From NCBI GenBank assembly GCA_009835735.1, contig VXWX01000076.1:420-64419 (forward strand): a DNA stretch of 64,000 nt, in the 5' to 3' direction. The first letter of the stretch is position 1; every line of letters starts with the position of its first letter. Positions 23,012-62,576 of this stretch are shown one piece after another. The stretch comes from Acidimicrobiaceae bacterium (GTDB taxonomy: Bacteria > Actinomycetota > Acidimicrobiia > Acidimicrobiales > Aldehydirespiratoraceae). The position numbers were made by a program, and so were the translations under genes. The notes under the pieces were generated by a model. That model saw nothing but the letters and a program-made list of their open reading frames with translations, was not told the origin of the DNA and searched no databases.

Positions 23012-23057
23012 AATTGGCAGCGGAACGCACCCTATAGGGGGCAAGATGCTGCCAGTT
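23012..23057 (+). repeat. REP-like nested-hairpin repeat, copy 1
   Basis: AATTGGCAGC ggaac GC-a-CCC TATA GGG-g-GC aagat GCTGCCAGTT. Intergenic. Confidence 0.85.
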
Positions 23058-23083
23058 CCGGTTGGGGACCGACTGTGTTGGTG

Positions 23084-23129
23084 AATTGGCAGCAGAACGC
23101 GCCCTATAGGGGGCAAGATGCTGCCAGTC
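23084..23129 (+). repeat. REP-like nested-hairpin repeat, copy 2
   Basis: AATTGGCAGC agaac GC-g-CCC TATA GGG-g-GC aagat GCTGCCAGTc. Starts 72 nt after copy 1. Confidence 0.85.
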
Positions 23130-23144
23130 CCGGATGGGGGCCGG

Positions 23145-24077
23145 CTAGAGGGCGGCGGCCAGGATGCGGGCCGTCTCGGCTATGGCGTCGTCCAGCGGGG
23201 TGGGCTCGATGTCGCCCAGCAGCTCGGCCAGGCCCGCCGGCGACAGGGCGTGGGCGAAGGGCAGCGGCTCGGTGCCGACGCCGAGGTCGTCGAAGCCGGT
23301 GATGCGGCGAACCCGGTCCACGAAGTCATCCACCGATGTCACGTGGCCTCTGAGATTCACTGCTGGCGCCGCCGGAGAGTCGAGTTCGACACGGGCGGCC
23401 GCGATGAACGCGCGGGCCACGTCGGGCGCGTAGTGGAAGTCGGTGACGCCCCCGTACCCGACCCGGTGTGGCTCGCCCCGCACGGCGCTGTAGATGGCGG
23501 CGGTGGGCTGGGAGGTGACGCCCTGATCGCGGCCGGCTCCGTACACGGTGAAGGGCCGCAGCCCCACCGTGGCCAGCCCGTGGTCGGCTGCGTACACCGC
23601 GGCAGTCTGCTCGTTGGCCACCTTGTAGGCGCCGTACAGCGTGGCCGGCTTGGGGAGGGCGTCCGGCTCGAGCACGGGCTCGGGATAGAGGTCGACGGGT
23701 CCGAAGATCGCGGCGCTCGAGGCGTAGGCCACCGGCGAGATGCCGTGCTCCACAGCCGCCTCGAACACGTTCACCGTGCCCTGGACATTGACCGCCGCGC
23801 CACCGCTGGGATCCGCCTTGCAGAACGGGACCTGAAGCGCAGCGAGGTGAATGACCCGGTCGACTCCGGCCATGGCGTCAACCACCGCGGCCCGGTCGGT
23901 AATGTCGCCGATCACCCGATGGAAGCTGAGCGGGGCGCCCTCAGCGACGAGCCGGTGGCGGCTGTCGTTGGCACCGATGTCGAAGGTGGTGACATCGGCG
24001 CCCTCGTTGAGCAGCAGGCGAACCGTCCAGGCGCCGATGCACCCGTCGGCCCCGGTCACAAGGAAGTGCTCGGCCAT
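23145..24077 (-). CDS. NAD-dependent epimerase/dehydratase (extended SDR)
   Basis: ORF trimmed to ATG 24077 ('MAEHFLVTGADGCIGAW'). The start overlaps the stop of the upstream SDR (TGATG). Confidence 0.8.
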   Translation of the reverse strand: MAEHFLVTGADGCIGAWTVRLLLNEGADVTTFDIGANDSRHRLVAEGAPLSFHRVIGDITDRAAVVDAMAGVDRVIHLAALQVPFCKADPSGGAAVNVQGTVNVFEAAVEHGISPVAYASSAAIFGPVDLYPEPVLEPDALPKPATLYGAYKVANEQTAAVYAADHGLATVGLRPFTVYGAGRDQGVTSQPTAAIYSAVRGEPHRVGYGGVTDFHYAPDVARAFIAAARVELDSPAAPAVNLRGHVTSVDDFVDRVRRITGFDDLGVGTEPLPFAHALSPAGLAELLGDIEPTPLDDAIAETARILAAAL

Positions 24078-24790
24078 CAGTAAGTCGCCCTCCCTCCGGA
24101 GATGTCGTAGCAGGCGCCGGTGCTGAACGAGCAGTCCTCGGAGCACAGCCAGCCCACGAGCGCGGCTACCTCCGAGGTCTCGCCGAGCCGTCCCATGGGG
24201 ATCTTCGACAGCATGTACTCCAGAACCTCGGGGGCGGTCTCGAGGTTCATGGGAGTGGCGATCACCGCCGGCGCGATCGAGTTGACCAGCACGCCGGTGG
24301 TGGCCAGCTCCTTGGCCACCGACTTGGTGAGGGCGATGACCGCTCCCTTGCTGGCCGAGTAGGCGCTCAGGTTCGGGTTGCCCTCCTTGCCCGCGATGCT
24401 GGCGATGTTGACGACCCGGCCCCAGCCCCGTTCGACCATGCCTCCCAGCGTGGCCTGCATCACATTGAAGATCCCGGTGACGTTCACATCGAAGGTGCGC
24501 TGCCAGCCGTCCAGGGGGGTCTCCAGCAACGGCACGTTGGGTCCGACGACACCGGCGGACTGCACCACGATGTCCATCCGGTCGATGCCGTCGATGGCCC
24601 GCACCGCCGCGGCGTCGGTGACGTCGACCTCGCAGACGGCGTCCAGCTCGTCGACCCGGGCGGCCATGTCACCGGCGTGGAGGTCCACTGCGGTCACCCG
24701 GCATCCCTGGGCCAGCAGCCGGTCGACGCACGCCGCGCCGATGCCCGACCCGGCCCCGGTGACCAGAGCCCTGCGTCTAGAAGAAGTCAT
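24077..24790 (-). CDS. Classical SDR oxidoreductase, paralogue of 19654-20370
   Basis: 'TGAGSGIG' and 'YSASK'. The C-terminal 'EVAALVGWLCSEDCSFSTGACYDI(S/T)GGRAT' is shared with the other SDR. Start ATG 24790. Confidence 0.85.
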   Translation of the reverse strand: MTSSRRRALVTGAGSGIGAACVDRLLAQGCRVTAVDLHAGDMAARVDELDAVCEVDVTDAAAVRAIDGIDRMDIVVQSAGVVGPNVPLLETPLDGWQRTFDVNVTGIFNVMQATLGGMVERGWGRVVNIASIAGKEGNPNLSAYSASKGAVIALTKSVAKELATTGVLVNSIAPAVIATPMNLETAPEVLEYMLSKIPMGRLGETSEVAALVGWLCSEDCSFSTGACYDISGGRATY

Positions 24791-24877
24791 GAGCCGACAT
24801 GGTAGGCACTGGCAGCGGACCGTTGACACTCGGGACGCCCGTTCCGTGACGGTGGAGCTGGGTTGGGTCCCAACCGG

Positions 24878-24923
24878 AATTGGCAGCGGAGGGTTCCCTA
24901 TAGGGGGCTGTCTGCTGCCAATT
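24878..24923 (+). repeat. REP-like nested-hairpin repeat, copy 3
   Basis: AATTGGCAGC ggagggtt CCC TATA GGG ggctgtct GCTGCCAATT. Lies in a divergent intergenic region. Confidence 0.85.
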
Positions 24924-25074
24924 CGGGGAAGGCGTCGTAGGGGGGCTGCGCCAGATGCCGGCGCGTAGTTCTATAGGACTGGCCCGCACGTAGGGGTGAC
25001 AATGGCTCTCGGGCCGCTGGGCGCGGCCGGGGCCCCTTACTACGTTCAGCGCGGGCCAGTGCTTGGAGGGCTAG

Positions 25075-26151
25075 TTGACCGCGCACGCCGTCGACGAGCG
25101 GGAACTTCAGCTCAGGCGGCCATTCGTGCTGCCGCGATGGGTGTCGCGTGCCGCGGTGTGGGTGCCGGTGGCCGCTGCGGCCCTGTGGGTTCTCGTCCTG
25201 GCTCGCAACACTTCGGCCGGCCCGGCCATCCGGGAGCCCGGCGAGTTCGTGGTCACGCTGCTGGACGGCGTCACCTTCGCGGGGCTGCTGTTCGTGGTGG
25301 CGTCCGGGTTCACCCTGATCTTCGGCCTGATGCGCACGGTCAACATGGCCCACGGGTCGCTGTTCCTCGGCGCCGCCTATGTCGCCCACGAGATCCAGAC
25401 CAACATGGTCGGCAAGGACGCCAACATCGACGCCCGCGACGTGAGTCTGCTGGCCTGGATCCTGCCGCTGCTCGCGGCCGGAGCCGTCGTCGCCCTCCTC
25501 GGCCTGCTCATGCAGCAGCTGCTGCTGCGCTGGAACCAGGGCCAGGACCTCCGCCAGGCCCTCATCACGCTGGCCATCTCGGTGATCGCGGCCGACCAGC
25601 TGCTGGCCCATTTCGGCGGCGTGGCCCAGCCGCTGAAGTGGCCCGGCGCCGTCACCCACTTCTTCGAGATCGTGGGCGAGCGCTACGCCACCAGCCGGCT
25701 GTTCATGCTGGGGGTGGCGCTGCTGGTGGGCGCGCTGCTCTGGCTGTGGCTCAACCGCACCCGCATGGGCATGGTCATCCGGGCCGGTGTGGACGATCAG
25801 GAGATGGTCCGGGCGCTGGGCATCAACATCACGCTGGTGTTCGCGATCACGTTCGTGGTCGGGTCGTTCCTGGCGGGGGTCGGCGGCGTGCTGGGCGGGT
25901 CGTTCGCCGGCTCGGTGGCGCCGGGAGTTGACGGTGCCTGGCTGCTCAATTCGCTGGTGGTGGTGATTATCGGCGGGCTCGGGTCGGTGAAGGGGGCGGT
26001 GGCCGGGTCGCTGCTGTACGGCATGGTGGTGGCCCTCTCGCCCGCGTACCTGCCCGCCGGGTACACCTACTACTCGGTCATATTCACGTTCGCCCTGCTG
26101 GCGGTGGTGCTGGCGGTGCGACCCGCCGGCCTCTACGGACGGGTCGAATGA
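25075..26151 (+). CDS. Branched-chain amino acid-type ABC transporter permease (LivH-like)
   Basis: 358 aa, polytopic, TTG start. 'FGLMRTVNMAHGSLF' is a typical LivH motif. Confidence 0.8.
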   Translation: MTAHAVDERELQLRRPFVLPRWVSRAAVWVPVAAAALWVLVLARNTSAGPAIREPGEFVVTLLDGVTFAGLLFVVASGFTLIFGLMRTVNMAHGSLFLGAAYVAHEIQTNMVGKDANIDARDVSLLAWILPLLAAGAVVALLGLLMQQLLLRWNQGQDLRQALITLAISVIAADQLLAHFGGVAQPLKWPGAVTHFFEIVGERYATSRLFMLGVALLVGALLWLWLNRTRMGMVIRAGVDDQEMVRALGINITLVFAITFVVGSFLAGVGGVLGGSFAGSVAPGVDGAWLLNSLVVVIIGGLGSVKGAVAGSLLYGMVVALSPAYLPAGYTYYSVIFTFALLAVVLAVRPAGLYGRVE

Positions 26152-27248
26152 GCCCGACAGGCGCCGCGCCCGGGCGGGCCCAGTCGCGCCGAACCCTCCG
26201 GCGGCTGCTGTCGGCCCGGAACGTGGTCGTGGCCGCGGCCACCGCGCTAGCCCTGCTGCTGCCCCTGTTCGGCTCGAACTTCTTCGTCGAGTTCGTGATG
26301 ACCCGCACCATGATCCTCGGGATCGCGGCGGCCACCATCGTGTTCCTGGCGGCCTACGGGGGCATGGTGTCGCTGGCCCAGTACCTGCTGGCGGGGGTGG
26401 CCGGCTTCATGGTCGGCAACGCCGTCGTCGCCCAGGACGCCTGGTCGAAGGGTCTCAAGCTCGGCTGGAACCCGTGGGTGGCGGTGCTGTTCGCCCTGGC
26501 GGTCACCACCGCCGTCGCCTTCGTGCTGGGCGCGCTGGCGTCTCGCACCACCGGCATCTACTTCCTGATGATCACCCTCACCTACGCGGTGATCGGCTAC
26601 TACGTGTTCGGGTCGATCACCCCGCTGTCGGGCTTCGGCGGGATCACCGGCATCGACCCGCCCGGCCTGTTCGAGGACCACCCGCAGCGCATGTACCTCG
26701 CGCTGGTGGTGCTCTCGGTGCTGGTCTACGTCGCCTTCCGGGTGCTGGCCGTCACCCCGTTCGGCCTGGCCCTTCAGGGCATCCGCGACGACCCGGTGCG
26801 TATGGCCTCGCTGGGCTTCAACGTGTCGCTGCACCGCACCCTGGCGTTCACCCTGGCGGGCTTCACCGCCGGTCTGGCCGGCGTGTTCAACGTCTGGTGG
26901 AACGGCCAGATTGACCCCACGTCGATATCGATCGGCCCCACGCTCGACCTGCTGATCGTGGCCGTCATCGGCGGCACCCTCAGCCTTGAGGGCGCCTGGC
27001 TGGGTGCCTTCGTGTTCGTGGCGGCCAACAACTACCTGCGCAACCTCCCCCTCGTCGACCACATCGGCATCACCGAGGCCCGGTTCAACACCATTGTCGG
27101 GGTGCTGGTGCTGCTCATCATGATCCTCTCGCCCGACGGCCTGGCCGGGATCATCGATCGCATCCGGCTGGGCCTGCGCCGTCTGGTCCAGCTGTCGCGG
27201 GGATCCGGAGCCGGCCCTCCCGAAGCCGCGGCCGGTTCGGCGCCATGA
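26148..27248 (+). CDS. Branched-chain amino acid-type ABC transporter permease (LivM-like)
   Basis: 366 aa, polytopic. ATGA overlap with the upstream permease. Confidence 0.8.
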   Translation: MSPTGAAPGRAQSRRTLRRLLSARNVVVAAATALALLLPLFGSNFFVEFVMTRTMILGIAAATIVFLAAYGGMVSLAQYLLAGVAGFMVGNAVVAQDAWSKGLKLGWNPWVAVLFALAVTTAVAFVLGALASRTTGIYFLMITLTYAVIGYYVFGSITPLSGFGGITGIDPPGLFEDHPQRMYLALVVLSVLVYVAFRVLAVTPFGLALQGIRDDPVRMASLGFNVSLHRTLAFTLAGFTAGLAGVFNVWWNGQIDPTSISIGPTLDLLIVAVIGGTLSLEGAWLGAFVFVAANNYLRNLPLVDHIGITEARFNTIVGVLVLLIMILSPDGLAGIIDRIRLGLRRLVQLSRGSGAGPPEAAAGSAP

Positions 27249-27347
27249 ACGTATTCACCAAGTTCGCGGCCGCACACGCGGTCCGAAGCGGACGAATGTC
27301 CGCCCCCTAATGGAGGGGATTCAGCCCATGAGAGAAAGGACCACTCC

Positions 27348-28895
27348 ATGAGATACAAGCCAACCTTCCGAAGGCTCCTGAGCCTTGTCGGCATCGTTGC
27401 CGTCTTCGCGTTGCTCGCCGCCTCCTGCGGCGACGACGACGACGGCGAGGCTGCGCCGGCGACAACGGCCGCCCCGGCGGAGCCCGAGGCCCCGGCCGAA
27501 CCCGAGGCGGAGCCTGAGGCCGAGCCTGAGGAGATGGAAGAGATGGAGGAGATGGAGGAGATGGACGACCACGCGCACGTGCACCTCGGCATCCTCGGCG
27601 AGTGTGAGGGCGCCTTCGGCGCGTTCCACGAGGACGTCGTGGCCGGTGCGTCGCTGCCGTTCATCACCTTCGCGGGCGGCACATCGAACTCGCCCACCAG
27701 CGCGCTGGAGGGATTCAGCGGCGCAGTGGTCGCCGGCGTGCCCATCGAGGTCGTCGGCATCGGCTGCGGTGACGACACCCCCGATCGCATCATCCAGGAG
27801 GTCCGCAAGATCGTCGAGCAGGACGGCGCCAACGTAGTGATCGGCCCGCTCTCGGGCGACGAGAGCATCGCGATCGCCAACTACGCGAAGGACCATCCCG
27901 AGGTGACCTTCCTCAACGGGATCGCCGGTGCCCAGGAGACCACCATGGTCGTTCAGGCCCCGAACTTCTTCCGGTTCAACGGTGACGGCGCCCAGTGGAA
28001 CGCTGGTCTCGGAGACATCCTCCACAACGAGGCCGGCTGGGACACAGCGGCCGTGATCGCCGATGACTACAGCTTCGGCTGGACCTCGACAGCGGGCTTC
28101 ATCGCCGAGTTCTGCGCGGTCGGCGGAGAGGTCATATCGAGGGTGTTCCCGCCCCTGGGAACCACCGACTACTCGTCGTTCGTCCAGCAGCTTCCCGACC
28201 CGGACGAGGTTGACGGCTACTTCTGGGCCGTCGGCGGCTCGGGCACCAACGCCTCGCTGGAGGCCTTCCTCGCGGCCAAGGGCGACCTGACCGGCGATCA
28301 GCACGCGGGCAACCTGTTCTTCAGCCCGGCGCTGGCCGCAGCTCTGGGGACCGACATCGCGGGGGCCTACGTGGGCGGCTTCGCCACCCTGCCCGGCGAC
28401 GTCTCCAGCCCGGCCATCCAGGAGTACCTGGCGTCGGCCGACGCCGCGTGGGACTCGCTGGTGAGCCCCATGTCCGGCATGGAGCCCGGCTCGCCCGCGG
28501 CTGCCGCCGGGTTCGGGTTCTTCTACGGCTTCTACAGCTCGGCCGTGGCCTTCATCATGGCCCTTGAGCAGGTCGGCGGCGACCTGTCCGACAACCACGC
28601 CGCGCTGCGCGACGCCCTGGCCAACATCCAGATCGACGGGCCCTACGGCACCATCACCCTCGACGACAACCGTCAGGCCATCGTCGACACGTCCGTCCAG
28701 CAGCTCGTGCTGAACGACGCCGGCGAGGTGGTGTCGCAGACCGTTGCCCTGATCCCGGCTGTGGACCAGAGCTTCGGCGGGACGTTCAGCCCGACCACGC
28801 CGCCACCGGACCGTGAGAACCCGGTGTGCGAGACGCGCGACCTGCCCTGGGCCGGCAACGCCATCCCAGTGGTCGACGGCGTTCCGCAGAGCTGA
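27348..28895 (+). CDS. ABC transporter substrate-binding lipoprotein (type I periplasmic binding fold, LivK-like) with an acidic low-complexity linker
   Basis: Lipobox 'LLAASCG', then a D/E/P/A-rich linker including (EEM)x4, then an ANF-receptor-like domain. 515 aa. Confidence 0.8.
   Translation: MRYKPTFRRLLSLVGIVAVFALLAASCGDDDDGEAAPATTAAPAEPEAPAEPEAEPEAEPEEMEEMEEMEEMDDHAHVHLGILGECEGAFGAFHEDVVAGASLPFITFAGGTSNSPTSALEGFSGAVVAGVPIEVVGIGCGDDTPDRIIQEVRKIVEQDGANVVIGPLSGDESIAIANYAKDHPEVTFLNGIAGAQETTMVVQAPNFFRFNGDGAQWNAGLGDILHNEAGWDTAAVIADDYSFGWTSTAGFIAEFCAVGGEVISRVFPPLGTTDYSSFVQQLPDPDEVDGYFWAVGGSGTNASLEAFLAAKGDLTGDQHAGNLFFSPALAAALGTDIAGAYVGGFATLPGDVSSPAIQEYLASADAAWDSLVSPMSGMEPGSPAAAAGFGFFYGFYSSAVAFIMALEQVGGDLSDNHAALRDALANIQIDGPYGTITLDDNRQAIVDTSVQQLVLNDAGEVVSQTVALIPAVDQSFGGTFSPTTPPPDRENPVCETRDLPWAGNAIPVVDGVPQS
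27531..27566 (+). repeat. Tandem 9-nt repeat x4 (gagatggaR) inside the SBP linker
   Basis: gagatggaa gagatggag gagatggag gagatggac, encoding EMEEMEEMEEMD. In frame. Confidence 0.9.
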
Positions 28896-28949
28896 GCGAA
28901 CCGTCCACCCAACCGACTGAGCGGTTCAATCACCTGAGCTGAGTCACCG

Positions 28950-29753
28950 ATGAACACCGACGCTGCCACCGCCGCCTCCGCCGAGAGGTCTGGTTCCCTC
29001 CTGAACCTGGAGGCGGTGGTGGTGGCGTTCGGTGGCCTGCAAGCCCTCGGAGGCGTGGACCTCGAGGTCTGGAAGGGCGACCGCCTGGCGCTGCTCGGAC
29101 CGAACGGCGCCGGTAAGACGACCCTGTTCAACGTGATCGCGGGCGACATCAAGCCGACGTCGGGGCGGGTGATCATCAAGGGGATCGACTGCACGGAGCT
29201 GCCGGCACGGTTCCGTCCCCGCCTGGGAGTGGCTCGCACCTACCAGAAGACCCGGCTGTTCCGGGGATTGACGGTGGAGGACAACCTCTACCTCGCCCAG
29301 ACCGGGCGCTCGGGCCGGCACCTGGCGCTGCTGCGTTCGGGTGTCGACGCCGAGTTCCGGGAGAGGGCCCGAGCCATGGCCGAGACGGTCTGGCTCGCCG
29401 ACGTCGTCGGTGTCACTGCCGGCGACCTGTCGCACGGTCAGCAGCGCCAACTCGAGATCGGCATGGCCCTGGTGACCGGGCCGGAGTTCGTCATGCTCGA
29501 CGAGCCGGCCTCGGGCCTGTCGCGGGGTGAGAGGGAGCGCCTGGTGCAGCTGCTGCTGAGCCTGGACGTCGACATCACCCTGCTGCTGATCGAGCACGAC
29601 ATGGACGTCGCCCTGCGCGCCGCCCAGCGGGTGATGGTGATGAACGAGGGTGAAACCGTGGCCAGCGGCACGCCCGACGAGATACGAGTCGACCCGCTGG
29701 TGCACGCCATCTACCTCGGAAGCGAGGCAGGCCTGCGAGGGGCGGACCCGTGA
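28950..29753 (+). CDS. ABC transporter ATP-binding protein (LivG-like)
   Basis: Walker A 'GPNGAGKTT', signature 'LSHGQQRQLEIG', Walker B 'LDEPASG'. Confidence 0.85.
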   Translation: MNTDAATAASAERSGSLLNLEAVVVAFGGLQALGGVDLEVWKGDRLALLGPNGAGKTTLFNVIAGDIKPTSGRVIIKGIDCTELPARFRPRLGVARTYQKTRLFRGLTVEDNLYLAQTGRSGRHLALLRSGVDAEFRERARAMAETVWLADVVGVTAGDLSHGQQRQLEIGMALVTGPEFVMLDEPASGLSRGERERLVQLLLSLDVDITLLLIEHDMDVALRAAQRVMVMNEGETVASGTPDEIRVDPLVHAIYLGSEAGLRGADP

Positions 29754-30466: not shown

Positions 30467-30494
30467 AACAACTCTGACCCCGACACCTGTACAA

Positions 30495-32968: not shown

Positions 32969-33004
32969 CCCCAGTTGGCCGGCGCGCCCGTCGGTCCCAC
33001 TAGG

Positions 33005-33049
33005 AATTGGCAGCAGGATGCACCGTATGGGTGCATTGTGCTGCCAGTT
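33005..33049 (+). repeat. REP-like nested-hairpin repeat, copy 4
   Basis: AATTGGCAGC agga TGCACC gtatg GGTGCA ttgt GCTGCCAGTT. Lies downstream of the response regulator. Confidence 0.85.
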
Positions 33050-33131
33050 CGCGTCCATGCCCGCTCACCCTGACGAGGGAGGCCGGGCTGCTTCTGCAAC
33101 AACTTGCCGCTCTGGTGCATCGTAGGTATTA

Positions 33132-33623
33132 GTGGGAGAGCACTCGGATCCCGCGCGGGGCGAATGGGCCGCCAACGGCACCGACCTGGAGAGCCTGTTC
33201 GTGGCCGAGCGGGTGCCCATGGTGCGGCTGGCCACGCTGATGGTGGGCTCGCGGGCTGTGGCAGAGGAAGTCGTGCAGGACGCGTTCGCGTCGGTGAGCG
33301 AGCGGTGGGACGGAATCGATCGACCGGGCGCGTACTTGAGAACAGCAGTGGTCAACGGGTGTGCACAGACACTGCGTCGCCGCTCGGTTGAAGACCGGCA
33401 CAGGCCTGTTGCGCTCGAGAACCCCGACGAGATTCCCGAGCGGCTGATCGAGCTACGCAGCGCCCTGGACTACCTCAGCGACCGACAACGAATCGTGGTG
33501 GTGCTGCGCTACTTCGTCGACCTGCCTGACGACGAGATCGCACAGGCGCTGGACGTGAAGCCTTCGACGGTGCGCTCGCTGGCCCACCGGGCTCTGGCTG
33601 TGCTTCGAAGGGAGTTGCGATGA
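33132..33623 (+). CDS. ECF-type sigma-70 family sigma factor
   Basis: 163 aa, GTG start. Region 2 'EEVVQDAFASV', region 4 'LSDRQRIVVVLRYFVDLPDDEIAQALDVKPSTVRSLAHRAL'. Confidence 0.8.
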   Translation: MGEHSDPARGEWAANGTDLESLFVAERVPMVRLATLMVGSRAVAEEVVQDAFASVSERWDGIDRPGAYLRTAVVNGCAQTLRRRSVEDRHRPVALENPDEIPERLIELRSALDYLSDRQRIVVVLRYFVDLPDDEIAQALDVKPSTVRSLAHRALAVLRRELR

Positions 33624-35569
33624 GCTGGCTTGAGGATCGCCTTCGTCGAGATCTGCCTGCACTCGCGGATGTGCTGATGGAAGACCAGGCCGCTCAGCCA
33701 GAAACTGCCGTGACCACGGTCGGCGACAGCCCCGACACGCTCGTGGAACTCAGCGCTCGGCCCGTACGCAGACGGCGCAGGTGGCCGGATGTGGCGGTCG
33801 CTGCGCTAGTAGCGGTAGTGGCCGGTGTCGTCGCGCTGGTCATTGCCACATCCGACAGCACGGAGGTAATGACGATAGAGGTCCCCGTTGCTCAGCAGGA
33901 TCCGGCCGAGCCTCCCGACGGAGCGCCGGAAGTGTCCGACGAGGTCCCGTCCGAGGAGGTCCCGCCGGAGGTCTCCGCCGCAGCCGAGGAGGGCAGCCGC
34001 GGGGTCACCTACCAGTCCATCTCGGCCGGTTACAGCCATGGCTGCGCGGTAGCCGCCGGGGGAGGCCTCGTCTGCTGGGGTAGCAACAACTTCGGGCAGG
34101 CTGATCCCCCCGAGGGCACCTATCAGGCCGTAGCCGCGGGGGCAGAACACAGTTGCGCCATCGCGACCGGCGGCACCCTCAACTGCTGGGGACACAACGA
34201 CGCCGGACAGGCCGATGCCCCGGCCGGCACCTATCAGGCCGTAGCCGCTGGCGTGGACCACAGTTGTGCCATCGCTACCGGCGGAAGCCTCGTCTGCTGG
34301 GGGGAGGATGTCTACGGCCAAGCCACCGCGCCCGAGGGCACCTACCGCGCAGTAGCCGCCGGCGAACGCCACACCTGCGCCATCGCAACCGGCGGCACCC
34401 TCAACTGCTGGGGAGACAACAGCTACGGGCAGGCGGATGCCCCGGCCGGCACCTATCGAGAAGTGGCCGCCGGCTGGGAGAGCAGTTGTGCGATCGCAAC
34501 CGATGGCACGATTGTCTGTTGGGGCGCCAACTACGCAGGGCAGACCGACGGGCCGCCAGGGACATACCAGGCGATCGCCGCTGGTGTGTCCCACCACTGT
34601 GCCCTAACGACCGGCGGCACGATCGCCTGCTGGGGAAGCAACAGCTTCGGGGAACTCGACGCTCCCGGCGGCACGTATAGGGCCGTCACCGCGGGTTCGG
34701 ACCACGGCTGCGCGCTCGCATCCGGCGGCACGATCAACTGCTGGGGAAGCAACATCTCCCGGCTTGCCGACGTACCGCCAGGCACCTACCAGGCTGTCGC
34801 TCCCGGCTGGTACCACAGCTGTGCCCTAACGACCGGCGGCACGATCTCCTGCTGGGGGAACAACGACTTCGGACAGGCCGAGGCCCCAGAGGGCACTTTC
34901 ACGGACCTTTCCGTCGGCTCGCTTCACAACTGTGGGGTAGCCACCAGCGGCACTCTGGCGTGCTGGGGGGACGACCACTCCGTCGGGCGCACCGACGCCC
35001 CGCCGGGCGCCTATAGCGCTGTCTCGACCGGCGAGGTCCATAACTGCGCGATAGCGACCGACAGCACGGTCTCCTGCTGGGGGGACAACAGCCGCGGGCA
35101 GACCGACGCTCCGGCCGGCGCCCACCGAGCCGTGGCCGCCGGCGAGTACCACAACTGCGCGCTAGCGAACGACGGCACCATCGCCTGCTGGGGAAGCAAC
35201 GGCTACAAGCAGGCTGAACCGCCGGCGGGCACCTACCGGTACGTAGCTGCCGGCGGGTTCCACAGCTGCGCTATAAGGACCGACGGCACGATCGCCTGCT
35301 GGGGGTACAACGACTTCGGACAGGCCGATGCGCCGGCGGGCACCTACCAAACTGTCGCCGCCGGCGGATACCACAACTGCGCCATCTCAACCGACGGCAC
35401 GATCGCCTGCTGGGGACGCACCGGATTCTGGATCGACGACGCCCCGGAAGGCAGCTACAAGTCCATCGCTACGGGCACCTACCACACCTGTGCGGTCACA
35501 TCCGACGACAGCATCGTGTGCGGGGGTTCGAAAGAACCGCCTGAGGGCCTTCACTGGGAGGCGCAATGA
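33620..35569 (+). CDS. Single-pass membrane protein with 14 RCC1/BLIP-II-like beta-propeller repeats (candidate anti-sigma/sensor partner)
   Basis: ATGA overlap with the sigma gene. TM 'VAVAALVAVVAGVVALVIA' at about aa 57-77. Then 14 units of about 37 aa of the form 'GTYxAVAAGxxHxCAIxTxGTxxCWGxNxxGQxDAPx'. Confidence 0.75.
   Translation: MSWLEDRLRRDLPALADVLMEDQAAQPETAVTTVGDSPDTLVELSARPVRRRRRWPDVAVAALVAVVAGVVALVIATSDSTEVMTIEVPVAQQDPAEPPDGAPEVSDEVPSEEVPPEVSAAAEEGSRGVTYQSISAGYSHGCAVAAGGGLVCWGSNNFGQADPPEGTYQAVAAGAEHSCAIATGGTLNCWGHNDAGQADAPAGTYQAVAAGVDHSCAIATGGSLVCWGEDVYGQATAPEGTYRAVAAGERHTCAIATGGTLNCWGDNSYGQADAPAGTYREVAAGWESSCAIATDGTIVCWGANYAGQTDGPPGTYQAIAAGVSHHCALTTGGTIACWGSNSFGELDAPGGTYRAVTAGSDHGCALASGGTINCWGSNISRLADVPPGTYQAVAPGWYHSCALTTGGTISCWGNNDFGQAEAPEGTFTDLSVGSLHNCGVATSGTLACWGDDHSVGRTDAPPGAYSAVSTGEVHNCAIATDSTVSCWGDNSRGQTDAPAGAHRAVAAGEYHNCALANDGTIACWGSNGYKQAEPPAGTYRYVAAGGFHSCAIRTDGTIACWGYNDFGQADAPAGTYQTVAAGGYHNCAISTDGTIACWGRTGFWIDDAPEGSYKSIATGTYHTCAVTSDDSIVCGGSKEPPEGLHWEAQ
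34001..35540 (+). repeat. Coding tandem repeat, about 111-nt period x14 (RCC1-like blades)
   Basis: For example, 'ggcacctatcaggccgtagccgc' recurs at 34115 and 34226, exactly 111 nt apart. Confidence 0.8.
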
Positions 35570-35761
35570 GAGGGTCTCCGTTGAGGAGTGCGCTGCTGGC
35601 CTGCCCTGACTAGTGCTTAGGAGCCACTCCTATGGGGGTGGGCAGGTTGCTCCGCTGGTGCCTGTTGCATGCTGCCGGGGTCAACTTGAATCCGGGGACA
35701 GCGCTAGAGGTGCCGGGTCGGCCTGTCGCGGGCGGGGTCGGAGCACCACCAGGAGGTTGCC

Positions 35762-36550: not shown

Positions 36551-36551
36551 C

Positions 36552-41231: not shown

Positions 41232-41240
41232 ATCAACCGG

Positions 41241-41286
41241 AATTGGCAGCATTGCGACCCCTATAGGGGGCAATCTGCTGCCAGTT
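41241..41286 (+). repeat. REP-like nested-hairpin repeat, copy 5
   Basis: AATTGGCAGC ATTGC ga CCCC TATA GGGG GCAAT ct GCTGCCAGTT. Confidence 0.85.
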
Positions 41287-41326
41287 CGCGGGACGGGGTG
41301 GCGCCGTAGCCGGGGCGTGGCACGCT

Positions 41327-48950: not shown

Positions 48951-48985
48951 AATTAGCAGCGTCTTGCACGGTATGCGTGCATTGA
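48951..48985 (+). repeat. REP-like repeat, copy 6 (truncated, right arm missing)
   Basis: AATTaGCAGC gtct TGCACG gtatg CGTGCA ttga. It ends exactly at the stop codon of the SDR gene (48986). Confidence 0.7.
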
Positions 48986-49904: not shown

Positions 49905-49927
49905 GCGGGGGCGAGCAGGCCTGCCGC

Positions 49928-51536: not shown

Positions 51537-51600
51537 GCGGCCGAACCGGTCGACGCATCCCTGGTTCGGCGTCGACGCGTCTTGTAGCTTGGCGTCACCT

Positions 51601-52659: not shown

Positions 52660-52674
52660 TCACGGGTCGGGCGT

Positions 52675-53706: not shown

Positions 53707-53841
53707 TGCCGTCTCCTGTCTCATCGGGTGTTGCGGGGCAGGCCAGCCGAGCAGCCGCACCGTATCGGCCTTCCACACCGGATCGATCAACCGCTTGGCG
53801 TCGGTTGCGAGCGCGCTCCGGCGGGGCGAGAGTGATGGCGA

Positions 53842-55074: not shown

Positions 55075-55119
55075 CGTGGGGACTGGTCTCACCTTCATCC
55101 AGACGCAGAGGAGGCGGTT

Positions 55120-56265: not shown

Positions 56266-56301
56266 GCGCAGCAGCTCGCGTCGAGGTACGGGGATGAGAC
56301 A

Positions 56302-57498
56302 GTGACTGCAGGACCACGGGGCGTGGGGGGCCGGTACTTCGTCCAGAATCCCGGGCCCACCAACATTCCCGACCGGGTGCTTGAGGCCTTCCGTCGGCCC
56401 GCGGTCGACTTCGCCGATCCCGACTTCATCGCGCTGGCCGACAGCGTCTGGGCCGAGTTGCCAGAGGTGTTCGGCGGGGCCGACGAGATCGTGGTGCTGA
56501 CCACGGTGGGCCACGGCGCCTGGGAGTCGGCCTTGACCAACACCCTCGATCCCGGCGACGCGGTGCTGATCCCCGACTGCGGGCTGTTCGGCAAGCGCTG
56601 GGCCATGATGGCGCGGGACCTCGGCTACGAGGTGGTGTCCACGTCGGAGCATCTGCAGAGCCCCACCGACCCCGCCGAGATCGCCGACATCCTGATGGCC
56701 GACACGGCCCACCGCATCCGCAACGTGTGCATCGTTCACACCGAGACCTCCACCGGCGCGGTCACCGACTTGGCCGCCATGCGGGCCGCCATCGACGCGG
56801 CCGGCCATCCGGCGCTGTTCGTGGTGGACGGGGTGTGCTCGCTGGGCATCGAGCCGCTGCGGATGCGCGACTGGGGGATCGACGTGGTGGTGGCCGCGGC
56901 CCAGAAGGGCCTGATGATGCCGCCCGGCCTTGCCTTCTGCGCGCTGAGCGAGCGGGCCCTGGAGCGCAACCGCTCGGCGTCCACCCCCCGGTTCCATCTG
57001 GCGTGGGCACCCCGCTTCGAGAGGGGCCACATCTACATGCGGTTCGGCGGCACCCCGCCCATCCAGCACATGTTCGCCCTTCGGGCGGCGCTCGACATGA
57101 TCGCTGAGAACGGTGGGATCGACGCCTCGGTGGCCCGTCACCGCCGCTGGGCGGCAGCGGTGCACGCCGCGGTGGACGGTTGGGCGTCGGGCGGCCCGTG
57201 GGAGATCAACATCGCCGAGCCCAAGCACCGCACTGCGGCCATTACCTGCGTGCGGACCGGCGACGTCGCTGCCGGTCCGCTGATCGACATGGCCCGGGAC
57301 CGCTTCAGAGTCAGCGTCGGATCGGGGATGATGAGCTCGCTGGAGGGCCGGACTTTCCGCATAGGCCATCTCGGCGACCTCAACGAGCCAATGCTGCTCG
57401 GCGCTCTGGGCGGCCTGGAGACGGCCATGACGGTGCTCGGGCTGCCCCACGGCCACGGCCTGCCCGCCGCGGTCGCGTCCTTGGCCTCCACCGCCTAG
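56302..57498 (+). CDS. Class V pyridoxal-phosphate aminotransferase (serine/alanine-glyoxylate type)
   Basis: 398 aa. 'HTETSTG' and PLP-Lys context 'AAAQKGLMMPPGL'. Confidence 0.8.
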   Translation: MTAGPRGVGGRYFVQNPGPTNIPDRVLEAFRRPAVDFADPDFIALADSVWAELPEVFGGADEIVVLTTVGHGAWESALTNTLDPGDAVLIPDCGLFGKRWAMMARDLGYEVVSTSEHLQSPTDPAEIADILMADTAHRIRNVCIVHTETSTGAVTDLAAMRAAIDAAGHPALFVVDGVCSLGIEPLRMRDWGIDVVVAAAQKGLMMPPGLAFCALSERALERNRSASTPRFHLAWAPRFERGHIYMRFGGTPPIQHMFALRAALDMIAENGGIDASVARHRRWAAAVHAAVDGWASGGPWEINIAEPKHRTAAITCVRTGDVAAGPLIDMARDRFRVSVGSGMMSSLEGRTFRIGHLGDLNEPMLLGALGGLETAMTVLGLPHGHGLPAAVASLASTA

Positions 57499-57512
57499 CC
57501 GGCGTCCCTGCG

Positions 57513-57558
57513 AATTGGCAGCGTACGGTGCCCTATAGGGCACTAACTGCTGCCAGTT
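57513..57558 (+). repeat. REP-like nested-hairpin repeat, copy 7
   Basis: AATTGGCAGC gtacg GTGCCC TATA GGGCAC taact GCTGCCAGTT. Lies between convergent genes. Confidence 0.85.
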
Positions 57559-57567
57559 CCCGCGCCC

Positions 57568-58161
57568 CTAGGCCTGAAGCAGCGTGGCCACCAGAGCCCG
57601 GAGCTCGGTGATGCCAGTTCCCTTGGAGGCGCTGGTCCACTGGACCGTGCCCCGGTCGGTGCCGAGCTTGGCCGCGAGTTCGCTCCGGCGGTTGCCGCGG
57701 CGGGACGGGCGTACCTTGTCGGCCTTGGTGGCCACGTAGGTCACGGGGAGTCCCAGCCCGTCCAGCCATTCGACGGTCTGGAGGTCGAGGCCGGTGGGAC
57801 CGATCTCGCCGTCGATGAGATGGAGCACGCCCCTCAGCGGCTCCCGGTGGGCGAGGTAGCCCTCAGCCATGGAGCTCCAGCGGTTCTGCTCGGCCTTGGA
57901 CGCCTTGGCGTACCCGTAGCCGGGCAAGTCCACCAGCCACAGTCCCGAGCCTTCGGCACCCAGTTCGAAGGCGTTGATCAGCCGGGTGGCGCCGGGGGTC
58001 TTGGACGTGCGGGCCAGCTGCTTGCGCTGGGCCAGCGCGTTGAGCAGCGACGACTTGCCCACGTTGGACCTCCCCACCAGAGCGATCTCGGCCACCGTGG
58101 CCGGCATCTGGCGAGCGTGGGGGAAGGACGACACGAATCGCAGCGCCAGTGGCCCAGCCAT
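57568..58161 (-). CDS. engB: Ribosome-biogenesis GTPase YihA/EngB
   Basis: 'GRSNVGKSSLLNAL', 'DLPGYGYA', 'TKADK'. Confidence 0.9.
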   Translation of the reverse strand: MAGPLALRFVSSFPHARQMPATVAEIALVGRSNVGKSSLLNALAQRKQLARTSKTPGATRLINAFELGAEGSGLWLVDLPGYGYAKASKAEQNRWSSMAEGYLAHREPLRGVLHLIDGEIGPTGLDLQTVEWLDGLGLPVTYVATKADKVRPSRRGNRRSELAAKLGTDRGTVQWTSASKGTGITELRALVATLLQA

Positions 58162-58209
58162 CCGATCAGGCTACGTGTGTGGTTGTAGCTGGGGGTTGCA
58201 GCCGCGGTG

Positions 58210-58995
58210 TCAGGTCTGGTGGTCGGGGCACCAGTAGGTGGTGCGGCCGCCCACCTGTTCGCGGCGCAGAGCCGCCCCGTCGCGGGGGCAGCCGCCACCC
58301 CGCTCCCGGCCTGGCTGGAGGTCGCCCGTGTGGGAGCCGCCCCGCTCGCCGAGGACGGCCAGCGTGCGGCGAACGTTGCGATGCAGCCGGGCCGTCTCCC
58401 GGGCATCCAGGGATCGGGCTTCCCGGACGGGGGACAGGCCGGCCCGCCACAACGCCTCGTCGACCAGCAGGTTGCCGAGCCCGGCCACCCGCCGCTGGTC
58501 GAGCAGCCGGGCCTTGAGCGCCACCGTCGAGTCGCCGAGCGCCTTGCGCAGCTGGCCGAGTGTGAGCGACAGCGCGTCCGGGCCCAACTTGCTCTCGTCC
58601 GGCTCGAGCTGAACGCCGCCCAACCGCCGAGGGTCACGCAGCACCATGGCGCCCCCGCCCTCAAACTCCAGCCCAAACCGGTCCCAGGCCGGCTCGTGGC
58701 GGGGGCTGTCGTACAGCAGATGGTCGATGGGCATGGCCCCGTCCACCACGATCTTGCCGGTCATGCCGAACCGCAGCCCCAGCCGCGGGCCGTCGGTGTC
58801 GACGATGACGAGCTTGCCGATGCGGCGGGCCTCCTCGATGCGGGCTCCGGTCAGCTCCAGGCGCAGCGCATCGGTGGTGGTGCCGTCCTTGGCAAACCAT
58901 TCATCGGGAGCGTGGACGCGTGCGATCGTGCGCCCCTCAGTGGCCGAGATGGCTCTGCGGTAGGCCTCCACCTCGATGATCTCAGGCACCGGCAC
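58210..58995 (-). CDS. Fpg/Nei-family DNA glycosylase (divergent N-terminus and zinc finger)
   Basis: 261 aa. 'MPVPEIIEVEAYRR', 'RRIGKLV', H2TH-like 'LLDQRRVAGLGNLLVDEALW'. C-terminal 'CPRD-x16-CPDH' has canonical zinc-finger spacing. Confidence 0.8.
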   Translation of the reverse strand: MPVPEIIEVEAYRRAISATEGRTIARVHAPDEWFAKDGTTTDALRLELTGARIEEARRIGKLVIVDTDGPRLGLRFGMTGKIVVDGAMPIDHLLYDSPRHEPAWDRFGLEFEGGGAMVLRDPRRLGGVQLEPDESKLGPDALSLTLGQLRKALGDSTVALKARLLDQRRVAGLGNLLVDEALWRAGLSPVREARSLDARETARLHRNVRRTLAVLGERGGSHTGDLQPGRERGGGCPRDGAALRREQVGGRTTYWCPDHQT

Positions 58996-59019
58996 GGACC
59001 CTTCGACGGGCTTGTCCGG

Positions 59020-59961
59020 TCAGCCGGCGGCGAGCCAGGCGTTGATGGCCTCGGCCAGAGCCGGGCCCTGGTCCTCCTGGATGAAGTGGCTGGCCGGCTC
59101 GAACTGGGCGTGGGGCTGGCCGGCCGCGCCCGGGATCCGCTCGGTCATGAAGGGCTGCAGGCCGCCCAGCACCGGGTCGCCGGGCGCCCACAGGGTGAGC
59201 ACCGGCTTGGTCCACTGCTCCAGGACCGTCCAGGCGGCCTTGTTGGCGGGTACGGCCGGGTCGTCGGGCGAGACCGGCACCAGCAGCGGGAACTGGCGGG
59301 CACCGGCCATGTACAGCTCTTCGGGGAACGGCGCCCGGTAGGCGTCGAGGGCGGCCTCGCTCAACTCGTTGGCGGTTGCGTTCTCGACCAGCCGGCCGCA
59401 GTCCAGGAAGGGGACGTCCTGGCTGAACTGCCGCCAGAAGTCGAAGCCGGCGCCGGGGGAGTCGCCCACCGGGAGGGCGGTGTTGGCCAGGATCAGCCGG
59501 TCGATTAGGTCGGGGTTCTCCGCCGCCAGCCGTAGGCCGATCAGGCCGCCCCAGTCCTGGCCGAACAGGTGCAGCGGCCCGTCGCCCCGCTCGACCGCGG
59601 TCGCCTCCACGAAGCCGCGCATCCACTCGACGTGTCCCGCATAGGTGCAGGCCGAACGCTCGACTGGCTTGTCGGACCGGCCGAAGCCGATCAGATCCGG
59701 CACGAGCACCCGGTGCCCGGCACCGGCAAGCACCGGGATCATCTTGCGATACAGGTAGCCCCAGGTCGGCTCGCCGTGCAGCAGCAGGATCGTGGCCGTA
59801 CCGGCGTCCGAAGAGTCCGGGCCGGCGATCACATATGCCATTCGCAGGCCGTCCACGGTGACGTATCGCGGCTCGTAGGGGTAGTCGTCGATGGCGGCGA
59901 AACGCTCCTCGGGCGTGCGCACGAACACGGTGCCGTCAGGAGCGGTAAGGGTCTCGGTCAT
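59020..59961 (-). CDS. Haloalkane dehalogenase-like alpha/beta hydrolase (HLD-I type)
   Basis: 'LHGEPTWGYLYRKMIP', nucleophile elbow 'GQDWGG', 'ASHFIQED'. Close by eye to DhlA-type enzymes. Confidence 0.75.
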   Translation of the reverse strand: MTETLTAPDGTVFVRTPEERFAAIDDYPYEPRYVTVDGLRMAYVIAGPDSSDAGTATILLLHGEPTWGYLYRKMIPVLAGAGHRVLVPDLIGFGRSDKPVERSACTYAGHVEWMRGFVEATAVERGDGPLHLFGQDWGGLIGLRLAAENPDLIDRLILANTALPVGDSPGAGFDFWRQFSQDVPFLDCGRLVENATANELSEAALDAYRAPFPEELYMAGARQFPLLVPVSPDDPAVPANKAAWTVLEQWTKPVLTLWAPGDPVLGGLQPFMTERIPGAAGQPHAQFEPASHFIQEDQGPALAEAINAWLAAG

Positions 59962-59997
59962 GGCCCGACGCTAGTGGCGCTGGAGCGGAGGGGGCGC

Positions 59998-61389
59998 CTA
60001 GCTCAGCGGCCGCTTCACGCTCGCGCCGTCGACCCACACGTGGATGATGTCATCGGCGGTGGCCAGGCGGACCACCTTCTCGAAGATGCGAGCTTCGTCG
60101 TCGATGCCGTCCCACAGCCGAATGGCTCCGCCTGGCCGGTCGGTCCGCACTGCCATGGCGTCGAAGCAGCGACCCGGCTCTATGAGCCCCACCGGCAGGT
60201 CGACGACGGCGGCGCCTCCGGCCGTAGCCAGCCAGAAGGCGGTCACGGTGTCGATGCGGGACTCGGGCACGCCCCGATCCGTTGCGCCGAGGGCGGGGTC
60301 GACGCCGTCCTCCAGCATGCGGGAGACGGTGACCGCGTCCTGGCAAACGCCCAGCAGGCCGGGGCGAGCCCCGCCGGCGATGTCGCTGCCCAGCCCCACG
60401 CCCAATCCGGCGGTCAGTGCTTGCCGCACACCGAACACCGCGTTGGCGAAGTAGGCGTTGGACAGCGGGCAGTGGGCCACGCCCGCACCCCGCCCGGACA
60501 CCAGGGTCATCTCGTCCGCCGTCAGGTGGTCGCTGTGAGCCAGCACGGTGCGCGGGCGGACGAGGCCGAAGCGGTTGAGGGCGGCGGAGTCACTGACGCC
60601 GAAGCGGTCGAGGGCGTAGTCGCAGTGCCAGTCCGACTCCGCGCAGTGCGTCTGTACCCGCACCCCGGTGGCCGCGGCCAATTCTCCCAGTCCCTCCAGC
60701 AGAGCGTCGGTGCAGGCGGGAGTGAACCGAGGGGTGATGATCGGCTCTACCAGCGGGCTACCCACGGCTGTCACGGCATCTATGGATGCCGCCGACGCCT
60801 CGACGCCGTCGCTGGCGGTCGCATCCCGGTACCACTCGGGGGTGCCGACCGGGTGGTCCATGGCCACCCGGCCCACCAGGGCCCGCTGGCCGTGGCGGGC
60901 GCAGGCTCGGGCCAGGGCGGTGGTGGCCTCCAGATGGTTGGACGAGAAGTAGACCGCGGTGGTGGTGCCCATAGCCAGCAACGACGGCACCAGGTCGTCC
61001 CAGACGACCGAGGCGAACCCGGCGTCGGCGTAGCGAGCCTCGAGCGGGAAGGTGTAGTCGAACAGCCAGCGCTCCAACGGCAGGTCGAGCCCGGTGCCGA
61101 GCTGGGGCCACTGGGGCGCATGGATGTGAAGGTCCACCAGCCCGGGCATAAGGAACGTGCCCTCGGCCAGGTCCACCCGCTCGTCTGCCGCATCAAGCGC
61201 GGCCCCTCCCGAAGCCGCTCCCTCCGAGGTGGACCGGTCGTGCACGGCGGTGATGGTCCCGCCGCCGTCAACCTCCACCACGGCGTCGATCACGGTCAAG
61301 CGGTCGCGTGCCGGTGTCTGCATCAGCGTTCCCGCCACTGCCAGTGTCACGGCGCCACCGTACTCATCGCGCACCGACCGGATCGGCAA
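59998..61389 (-). CDS. Amidohydrolase, guanine deaminase-like
   Basis: 463 aa. 'GLVDLHIHAPQWPQLG...LERWLFDYTFPLE', 'HCAES', 'GLGSDIAGG'. Confidence 0.65.
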   Translation of the reverse strand: MPIRSVRDEYGGAVTLAVAGTLMQTPARDRLTVIDAVVEVDGGGTITAVHDRSTSEGAASGGAALDAADERVDLAEGTFLMPGLVDLHIHAPQWPQLGTGLDLPLERWLFDYTFPLEARYADAGFASVVWDDLVPSLLAMGTTTAVYFSSNHLEATTALARACARHGQRALVGRVAMDHPVGTPEWYRDATASDGVEASAASIDAVTAVGSPLVEPIITPRFTPACTDALLEGLGELAAATGVRVQTHCAESDWHCDYALDRFGVSDSAALNRFGLVRPRTVLAHSDHLTADEMTLVSGRGAGVAHCPLSNAYFANAVFGVRQALTAGLGVGLGSDIAGGARPGLLGVCQDAVTVSRMLEDGVDPALGATDRGVPESRIDTVTAFWLATAGGAAVVDLPVGLIEPGRCFDAMAVRTDRPGGAIRLWDGIDDEARIFEKVVRLATADDIIHVWVDGASVKRPLS

Positions 61390-61408
61390 CCGGCCGTTGC
61401 GCCGAGTC

Positions 61409-62422
61409 TCAGGCCAGCAGTTCGGCGAAGACCTCGATGGCGGTCTCGATGTCGTCGGCAGAGATGTCCAAGTGGGTGACGAGTCGGGACTGTGAACCGG
61501 TCCAGCGGGTGAGAACGCCGCGGTCGGCGAGCGCTTCGCTCAGGTCCGGGCGATTGCCTCCCGCTTCATCGTCGAGGCGGATGAACACCATGTTGGTGGC
61601 ACACGAATCGATCTTCACGCCGTCGATAGCGCCCAATCCCTCCGCCAGGCGGGCCGCGTTGGCATGATCGTCGGCGAGGCGCTCAATGTGGTGCTCCAGC
61701 GCGTAGAGGCCGGCGGCCGCCACGATGCCGGCCTGGCGCATCCCGCCCCCGAGCATCTTGCGCCATTTGTGCGCCTCGTCGATGAGGTCTGCCGGCCCGA
61801 CCAGCACTGATCCAACCGGTGTGCCCAGACCCTTCGACAGGCACACCGACACCGAGTCGAACGGCGCGGCCACCACCGCTGGCGAGACCCCTAGCGCCAC
61901 CGCCGCGTTCCACAACCGGGCCCCGTCGAGGTGATGGGACAGGCCGTGGCGGGCGGCAACCTCAGTCGAGGCCTCCATCTGGGCCAGGGTGAGCACCTTG
62001 CCGTCGTTAGTGTTCTCCAGGCACAGCAGGCGCGTGCGGGCGAAGTGGTGGTCGGGGGCCTTCACAGCCGCCTCAGCCGCGACGAGGTCGATCATGCCGT
62101 CGTCACCGGTGGGCACGGGCTGAGGCTGGATGGAGCCGAGCACCGCCGCGCCGCCACCCTCGTACATGTAGGTGTGGGCATGGTTGCCGACGATGTACTC
62201 GTCGCCGCGCCCGCAGTGGGCGAGCAGCCCGCAGAGGTTGCCCTGCGTACCGCTGGTCACGAACAGGGCGGCCTCCTTGCCGAGCAGCGCCGCGGTGGTC
62301 TCCTGTAGCTCGTTGACGGTGGGGTCCTCGCCGTGCACGTCGTCGCCCACGGCGGCTGATGCCATGGCTGCCCGCATGGCTGACGTGGGCTTGGTGACGG
62401 TGTCGGAGCGAAGGTCGATCAC
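61409..62422 (-). CDS. ltaE: Low-specificity L-threonine aldolase
   Basis: '[11 protein letters not shown]', '[15 protein letters not shown]', PLP-Lys 'CLSKGLG'. Confidence 0.85.
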
Positions 62423-62458
62423 AACGACAGGCTACGGCCCACCGGCCGGCTCGCCCAG

Positions 62459-62504
62459 AATTGGCAGCGTCTTGCCCCCTATGGGGTGCGTTCTGCTGCC
62501 AGTT
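62459..62504 (+). repeat. REP-like nested-hairpin repeat, copy 8
   Basis: AATTGGCAGC gtct TGCCCC ctat GGGGTG cgttct GCTGCCAGTT. Confidence 0.85.
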
Positions 62505-62530
62505 CGGGATGGGGATGGCACTCCGTGATG

Positions 62531-62576
62531 AATTGGCAGCGTCTTGCCCCCTATGGGGTGCGTTGGGCTGCCAATT
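62531..62576 (+). repeat. REP-like nested-hairpin repeat, copy 9
   Basis: AATTGGCAGC gtct TGCCCC ctat GGGGTG cgttgg GCTGCCAATT. Starts 72 nt after copy 8. Confidence 0.85.

Follow-up and report, generated by a model that had tools for sequence, protein, structure and literature searches.

The 64,000-nt stretch of contig VXWX01000076.1 (assembly GCA_009835735.1, positions 420 to 64,419) from an Acidimicrobiaceae bacterium, referred to here as the window, contains nine copies of a short nested hairpin. What kind of element is this, and what governs the way in which its copies fold, face and accumulate? We find that the copies belong to a real, lineage-specific and previously undescribed family of extragenic palindromes in sponge-associated Acidimicrobiia, which resemble in kind the repetitive extragenic palindromes (REPs) of other bacteria. 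The reading that best accommodates the observations below is that of a REP-like element spread or kept strand-specifically in conjunction with replication, to which we assign a probability of about one half.

A hairpin family in sponge-associated Acidimicrobiia

The family comprises at least 437 copies in at least 258 clusters, located in 235 stretches and the window. A pattern scan of genomes, one per species, yielded at least 231 of these copies in at least 115 stretches plus the window, and a metagenome set contributed 206 further copies in 120 contig stretches. Nearly all of the genome stretches listed come from sponge-derived metagenome-assembled genomes (MAGs) labelled Acidimicrobiia, Acidimicrobiaceae or 'Candidatus Aldehydirespirator', and the sequencing runs containing the window are likewise sponge metagenomes. 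True members score 45–69 bits and, among the matches listed, are confined to sponge-associated Acidimicrobiia. Apparent members in Cellvibrionales, Ktedonobacteraceae, Proteobacteria MAGs and low-GC contigs scored 19–38 bits, matched the arms alone and were rejected as chance similarities. The element had no matches in IMG/VR viral contigs, plasmids or phages. It also corresponds to no known Rfam family, as an earlier note made from the letters of the window had proposed: searches returned no match at gathering thresholds across the whole window and none at E ≤ 1 in positions 22900–25100. In the literature, we found no paper describing the family and none on such elements in Actinomycetota or sponge symbionts.

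The element consists of two nested stems. The outer stem is 11 bp long (GAATTGGCAGC/GCTGCCARTTC), near-invariant and paired in 98–99% of cases; the 10-nt arm recognized previously is present, but the palindrome extends one base further on each side (G-AATTGGCAGC...GCTGCCARTT-C). Inside it lie an internal loop, an inner stem of 5–6 bp and a TAT(A) loop. Copies fall into two size classes, one of 45 nt with the core GTTTTGCACGGTATGCGTGCATTCT and one of 46 nt with a core centred on CCCTATAGGG. The inner stem of the 45-nt class (TGCACG/CGTGCA) is conserved in sequence and 73–100% paired. The inner helix of the 46-nt class is 74% paired overall (71 distinct copies), with only two loop-side C-G pairs constant. 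The nested-hairpin architecture is well founded: folded as single-stranded DNA, the window copies reach z-scores of −3.3 to −7.5 relative to shuffled sequences, and the cores are better folded than dinucleotide shuffles, with mean z-scores of −2.4 for the 45-nt class and −1.2 for the 46-nt class. The outer stem stays near-identical among genomes that share only 72–93% gene identity, which argues for ongoing copying or for recognition by a protein.

The earlier note had further taken compensatory changes in the inner stem as a sign of selection on structure rather than sequence. The structural picture is correct, but covariation was given too much weight. Within the 46-nt class (71 distinct copies), inner-stem covariation is 0.098 as opposed to 0.094 after shuffling, a non-significant difference (132 of 500 shuffles scored as high), and RNAalifold retains the outer stem alone. 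The combined alignment of both classes does give a significant signal (0.172 versus 0.112; 0 of 500 shuffles). Most of this signal is due to a single pair, G-C in copies of the 45-nt class but C-G in those of the 46-nt class (29 versus 29); the swapped pair is carried by four 45-nt copies that include copy 4 of the window. Since the outer stem is invariant, it provides no covariation information, and the combined signal, dominated as it is by that single pair, represents very few independent events. The combined covariation thus reflects a few inherited events and not widespread compensation.

All nine copies reported for the window, eight full and one truncated, are present. A covariance model built from 60 family members and run with filters off recovered the eight full copies at 51–69 bits and the core of the truncated one at 48962–48984 (E 0.06), and detected no further copies in the whole window. 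It matched nothing in the first 22 kb, which had correctly been described as free of copies. We counted 17 occurrences of the arm AATTGGCAGC in the window, with no more than one mismatch each, compared with 1.67 expected, and none of 100 shuffles contained as many. The window has a G+C content of ~69% and contains no tRNA genes. The copies and the linkers between tandem neighbours are the following:

23011–23058, plus strand: copy 1, 46-nt class; the span counts the stem-extending flanking G and C, and the strand follows from arms, tail and fold
23059–23082, plus strand: G-rich linker between copies 1 and 2, 26 nt if counted between the 46-nt elements; unit of 72 nt
23083–23130, plus strand: copy 2, 46-nt class, with right arm AGTC
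24877–24924, plus strand: copy 3, 46-nt class, with perfect AATT/AATT arms
33004–33050, plus strand: copy 4, 45-nt class, inner stem TGCACC/GGTGCA with a G-C to C-G double change
41240–41287, plus strand: copy 5, 46-nt class, 9 nt past the stop codon of an isochorismatase-family gene
48951–48985, plus strand: copy 6, truncated; left arm with one mismatch, core of the 45-nt class, right arm lost
57512–57559, plus strand: copy 7, 46-nt class, between convergent aminotransferase and GTPase genes
62458–62505, plus strand: copy 8, 46-nt class
62506–62529, plus strand: G-rich linker between copies 8 and 9; unit of 72 nt
62530–62577, plus strand: copy 9, 46-nt class, with perfect arms

A single shared architecture had been proposed for these copies. 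This is firm for copies 3–9, but the orientation of copies 1 and 2 is ambiguous, because their cores (23022–23047) match the cores of copies 8 and 9 (62469–62494) in reverse complement, with arms and tails unflipped, and the covariance model scores their two strands almost equally (59.9 versus 58.5 bits). An inversion of the core inside the hairpin is possible. In the wider family, about 4 of 169 distinct cores appear flipped in the same manner. The truncated copy 6 is represented at the same site in other strains by complete or tandem elements, including one on a sponge-metatranscriptome contig.

Strand asymmetry, orientation and arrays

The two strands of the element are not equivalent. Read in the direction that we designate '+', the hairpin has around three G·T wobbles and scarcely any A·C, and the opposite strand has A·C mismatches at these positions. 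A wobble-based orientation call that makes no use of the flanks matches the profile-based one for 188 of 192 copies. Stability favours the '+' strand with RNA parameters (96 of 99 and 70 of 72 copies) as well as with DNA parameters (89 of 99 and 60 of 72 copies).

This intrinsic polarity follows the chromosome. The better-folding strand is the one that is richer in G over the 8 kb around the element (P = 3e-7 by cluster and 1e-5 by stretch), and the relation between orientation and GC skew reappears in the independent metagenome set (P = 0.001). As a guard against circularity from the G-rich 3' flank, GC skew was computed with the repeats masked and orientation was called by the flank-free wobble count; the association persisted under both measures. 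For six complete chromosomes, a model with two arcs of opposite orientation misfits only 2 of 49 clusters (permutation P = 0.0085). In OZ242297.1, for example, elements are '+' across 0.07–0.30 of the chromosome length and '−' across 0.64–0.85, and in OY759762.1 they are '−' across 0.07–0.63 and '+' across 0.75–1.00. On the latter chromosome, elements run against the local gene direction in 6 of 12 stretches, yet 11 of the 12 are consistent with the arcs. Adjacent genes share the orientation of the element in 64% of cases, second neighbours in 63% and more remote genes in 59%; being nearly equal at all distances, this agreement is a regional effect and not one of the neighbouring gene. In the window, where the genes are mostly on the plus strand and cumulative skew rises, the plus strand is probably the leading strand.

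Clusters also have a regular internal organization. Half of them hold 2–6 copies each, and the multi-copy clusters are arranged head to tail, with mixed orientation in only 1 of 66. Linkers measured 26 nt in 70 cases, 27 nt in 21 and 25 nt in 3, and the independent metagenome set gave 65, 7 and 3 cases at the same respective lengths. The repeat unit is therefore the 45/46-nt hairpin together with a G-rich tail of ~26 nt, 71–72 nt in all. Linker sequence is free, at 48% G and 28% C, and whole units within one array are near-identical. A G-rich tail with a defined motif had been described downstream of most window copies. Its composition was confirmed (the 26 nt downstream contain 45–48% G versus 28% C), but there is no motif, and the one quoted is missing at copies 4 and 7. 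The 26 nt beyond the last copy of a cluster show the same G bias as the linkers. The spacing is unchanged for 12 pairs of unlike neighbours, mixed 45/46-nt pairs included. A 46-nt copy adjoins a 45-nt copy, 25–27 nt apart, in stretches L035 (6922–7038), L041 (7157–7273) and L062 (3292–3407). Simple local duplication is no explanation for mixed-class arrays at the usual spacing.

Copy number is in flux. Orthologous sites in relatives hold 0, 1, 2, 3 or 5 copies; the site of copy 7 (57513), for instance, has one copy in the window and three in stretch L017. A contig of sequencing run X17 lacks 23010–23137, i.e., copies 1 and 2, and a variant X17 contig is without copy 4 and the neighbouring cassette of an extracytoplasmic function (ECF) sigma factor and RCC1 repeats. 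Arrays this variable could be used to type strains, and the orientation of the element could mark replichores in MAGs with weak GC skew. The polarity and the fixed unit length make the family more informative than a routine repeat.

Proposed replication-coupled copying and its alternatives

How might such copies arise and come to share one direction per chromosome arm? We infer a mechanism in which the element acts at the DNA level. The '+' strand, lying on the leading-strand sequence, would be the template of the lagging strand and hence transiently single-stranded at the fork, and it would be during replication that copies are produced, retained or amplified in a strand-specific way. Recognition of the invariant stem as a single-strand hairpin would fall to a protein, the obvious candidate type being an HUH/Y1 nuclease like RAYT or the IS200/IS605 TnpA. 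Local head-to-tail amplification would then build the arrays, and if cleavage or priming occurred a defined number of nucleotides away from the hairpin foot, this could account for the fixed linker. The by-products of such a process would be hairpins in 3' untranslated regions as well as hot spots of rearrangement and island insertion. With its intrinsic strand asymmetry, arm-polarized orientation and fixed unit, the family lends itself to testing whether hairpin repeats are copied as single strands in step with replication.

Two known classes of elements are close to this picture. REP-type repeats have been studied well in Proteobacteria, and their mode of spread is debated. Like the REP, BIME and REPIN sequences of E. 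coli and Pseudomonas, the present element is a short, intergenic, high-copy imperfect palindrome that lies mostly just past stop codons, occurs singly or in tandem clusters, differs in copy number among relatives and is found at rearrangement breakpoints and island insertions. The proposal that it is no described REP or miniature inverted-repeat transposable element (MITE) thus holds for sequence identity, but the element is REP-like in kind. It differs from REP and BIME in its fixed linker of 26±1 nt, its replichore polarity and its Actinomycetota host, and no RAYT was found in ~1.8 Mb. Models for the tandem amplification of BIMEs by TnpA-REP exist (PMC3333891, PMC6006769).

The second class comprises the IS200/IS605 elements, whose working form is a hairpin of single-stranded DNA and whose activity is directed to the lagging-strand template (PMC6006769, PMC3333891). 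Elements such as IS608 and ISDra2, and their gene-less derivatives, share with the present family a strand-specific hairpin, the placement of the foldable strand on the lagging-strand template and the lack of a target-site duplication. The lagging-template bias is indeed seen here, with the strand assigned by skew and gene bias only. The combination of strand asymmetry, replichore polarity and missing target-site duplications is in line with reports on IS200/IS605-type single-strand elements. In contrast to these, there is one 46-nt hairpin rather than two subterminal ones flanking a gene, there is no adjacent conserved tetranucleotide target, and no TnpA was found in the DNA sampled.

Several observations weigh against the proposed mechanism. 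The hairpin foot of REPs carries a conserved GTAG/CTAC tetranucleotide needed for cleavage by RAYT (PMC8266576). Neither the conserved columns nor the flanks of the present family contain GTAG, the consensus foot being G-AATTGGCAGC, and there are no inverted REP pairs, as clusters run head to tail in one orientation. With both the GTAG foot and inverted pairing missing, we do not file the element as a member of the REP family. Comparison of empty and filled orthologous sites yields no clean insertion boundaries; the two kinds of site differ by rearrangements and by additional bases in the flanks. The assignment of leading and lagging strands is based only on GC skew and majority gene direction. 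Moreover, G·T wobbles stabilize RNA by ~6 kcal/mol and DNA by ~1.3 kcal/mol; with the larger effect in RNA, the strand asymmetry would suit an RNA role too.

An enzyme gene is likewise not apparent near the element. The earlier note had seen no RAYT in the window, and a phmmer search with E. coli RayT (from NC_000913) agrees. Using this single distant query, we searched ~1.83 Mb around 258 clusters and obtained no Y1/RAYT gene (E ≥ 0.19 in 968 kb and E ≥ 1.5 in 862 kb), and a search of the element-bearing DNA for RAYT motifs gave no matches. A Y1 HUH transposase (Pfam PF01797 class) was thus not found in ~1.8 Mb around the clusters with one distant RayT query; in a protein-database search, the same protein returned 120 proteins, all from Enterobacteriaceae. 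Cluster density is ~1 per 9 kb in the window and ~1 per 100 kb in other stretches, and the per-genome figure is uncertain. For this reason, the lack of a RAYT beside 258 clusters is only mild evidence against a REPtron-like arrangement. Among neighbouring genes, recurrent families (short-chain dehydrogenases, acyl-CoA dehydrogenases, an AAA-ATPase family and others) lie 1–6 kb from the elements and were discarded as not associated with them; directly beside the elements, no protein family recurs. Genes between opposed or paired arrays encode enoyl-CoA hydratase, ferrochelatase, Fpg, L21/L27 and a PIN toxin, and include no transposase.

A more specific version, which we regard as tentative and rather unlikely, is that the elements are mobilized or retained in place by an unrecognized fork-coupled single-strand-DNA system in Actinomycetota, which would operate without GTAG/RAYT logic or target-site duplication and set new units 26 nt from an existing hairpin. 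If true, it would represent a new mechanism for building polar repeat arrays.

The main rival to replication-coupled spread or maintenance holds that the element acts as RNA, either as a factor-independent terminator or as a 3'-end stabilizer without a U-tract, with orientation following transcription. The claim that every window copy is intergenic is upheld by a gene map based on third-codon-position GC content (GC3) and by Pfam, and throughout the family all copies occupy intergenic settings, barring crude gene-caller artefacts, among ordinary metabolic and housekeeping genes. In favour of an RNA role, copies lie ~20 nt past stop codons, in 59 co-directional, 20 convergent and 9 divergent contexts; the gene on the 5' side is co-oriented with the element in 68.5% of clusters; folded as RNA, the hairpin is highly stable (about −27 kcal/mol), with a G·U asymmetry typical of RNA structures; and the element is present in sponge-metatranscriptome contigs, which carry no strand or depth information. 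Intrinsic terminators without a U-tract are common in Actinobacteria, and they share with the element a GC-rich hairpin past stop codons.

The RNA role accounts for position and the G·U signature, but not for the invariant stem, the fixed phase and the gene-independent orientation. Adjacent genes are no more co-oriented with the element than those two to three positions away, and orientation stays coherent across megabase arcs despite opposed local genes. In the window, the element is antisense to the genes at three of the five co-directional sites: copies 1–2, 6 and 8–9 lie between co-directional minus-strand genes, and copies 4 and 5 between plus-strand genes, copy 4 starting 36 nt past the stop codon of a response-regulator gene. 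Copy 3 is flanked by divergent genes, a short-chain dehydrogenase (minus) and a permease (plus). Terminators, furthermore, need no 11-bp stem that is invariant across species, no fixed 26-nt spacing and no arrays of up to six copies. The U-tract-less type differs from the element in these respects and in replichore polarity, and the element also occurs in antisense and between divergent genes. There is neither a T-run downstream, where T accounts for at most ~20–30% at every position, nor an A-run upstream, and a Rho-independent terminator was rejected on the grounds of T-poor downstream DNA and only 68.5% co-orientation with the upstream gene. Taken together, we judge an RNA function unlikely.

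In an improbable alternative, a chromosome-organizing or fork-associated protein would bind the element as a polar site, so that selection, and not transposition, fixes the orientation of the element by replichore. This would explain the polarization, the invariant stem sequence and the tandem copies at a fixed phase of 71–72 bp. However, orthologous copy number is highly variable and sites are often empty, which points to flux rather than maintenance, and copies are restricted to intergenic DNA. A duplex site, moreover, requires neither the self-complementarity of the core nor the wobble asymmetry.

Even less probable is a MITE moved by a DDE transposase that recognizes the 11-bp terminal inverted repeats. 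The arms do form perfect repeats of 10–11 bp (98–99% complementary), and the dispersed intergenic distribution and presence/absence polymorphism are as expected for this class. Target-site duplications, however, are missing: direct repeats of ≥4 nt flank at most 6 of 255 clusters, and the sole excess, at 2–3 nt, is compositional. In addition, a MITE of 46 nt would be very short and would not be expected to form head-to-tail arrays with fixed linkers, to fold strand-asymmetrically or to show replichore polarity, and no parent insertion sequence or similar ends were seen in element-bearing stretches, plasmids, phages or IMG/VR contigs.

Least probable of all is a CRISPR-like array or a set of integron attC-like recombination sites: palindromic repeats do alternate with fixed-length spacers, and the toxin-antitoxin cassette of stretch L086 has arrays on both sides, but linkers inside an array are near-identical and not unique spacers, the arrays are short and scattered amid housekeeping genes, no cas or integrase genes adjoin them, and the right end reads GTTC(G/C)G as opposed to the attC core GTTRRRY.

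Among actinobacterial repeats, the mycobacterial interspersed repetitive units (MIRUs) are not known to centre on a conserved long hairpin and are described as oriented with the operon. They share with the present element an intergenic tandem unit of 50–100 bp and a strain-variable copy number; the present element is hairpin-built and oriented by replichore rather than operon.

Rearrangements, islands and neighbouring genes

The repeats mark spots of island insertion or loss, as seen for a Type I restriction-modification island, a toxin-antitoxin cassette and the sigma-factor cassette. The restriction-modification island of the window (4017–12288) is of low GC content (61–66%), lies between two convergent genes and encodes HsdM, HsdS, HsdR and a YgjP-like peptidase. 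In the related stretch L072, its site is occupied by just two tandem hairpin copies; the window has no remnant of the repeat there. In L086 (2997–4509), an antitoxin-like open reading frame and a PIN-domain toxin gene lie in lower-GC DNA between a four-copy and a three-copy array of the same orientation. The cassette next to copy 4 (32969–35607) consists of the ECF sigma factor gene followed by a gene with 14 RCC1 repeats, which have a tandem period of 111 nt.

Synteny between the window and stretch L109 (1523–3293) ends exactly at copies 2 and 5 (window positions 23140 and 41274), with one side inverted. These breaks suggest that the repeats mark or mediate rearrangements. In L115 (7159–7731), rplU and rpmA lie between element arrays, on the strand marked as lagging by GC skew and element orientation, an unusual placement for highly expressed genes.

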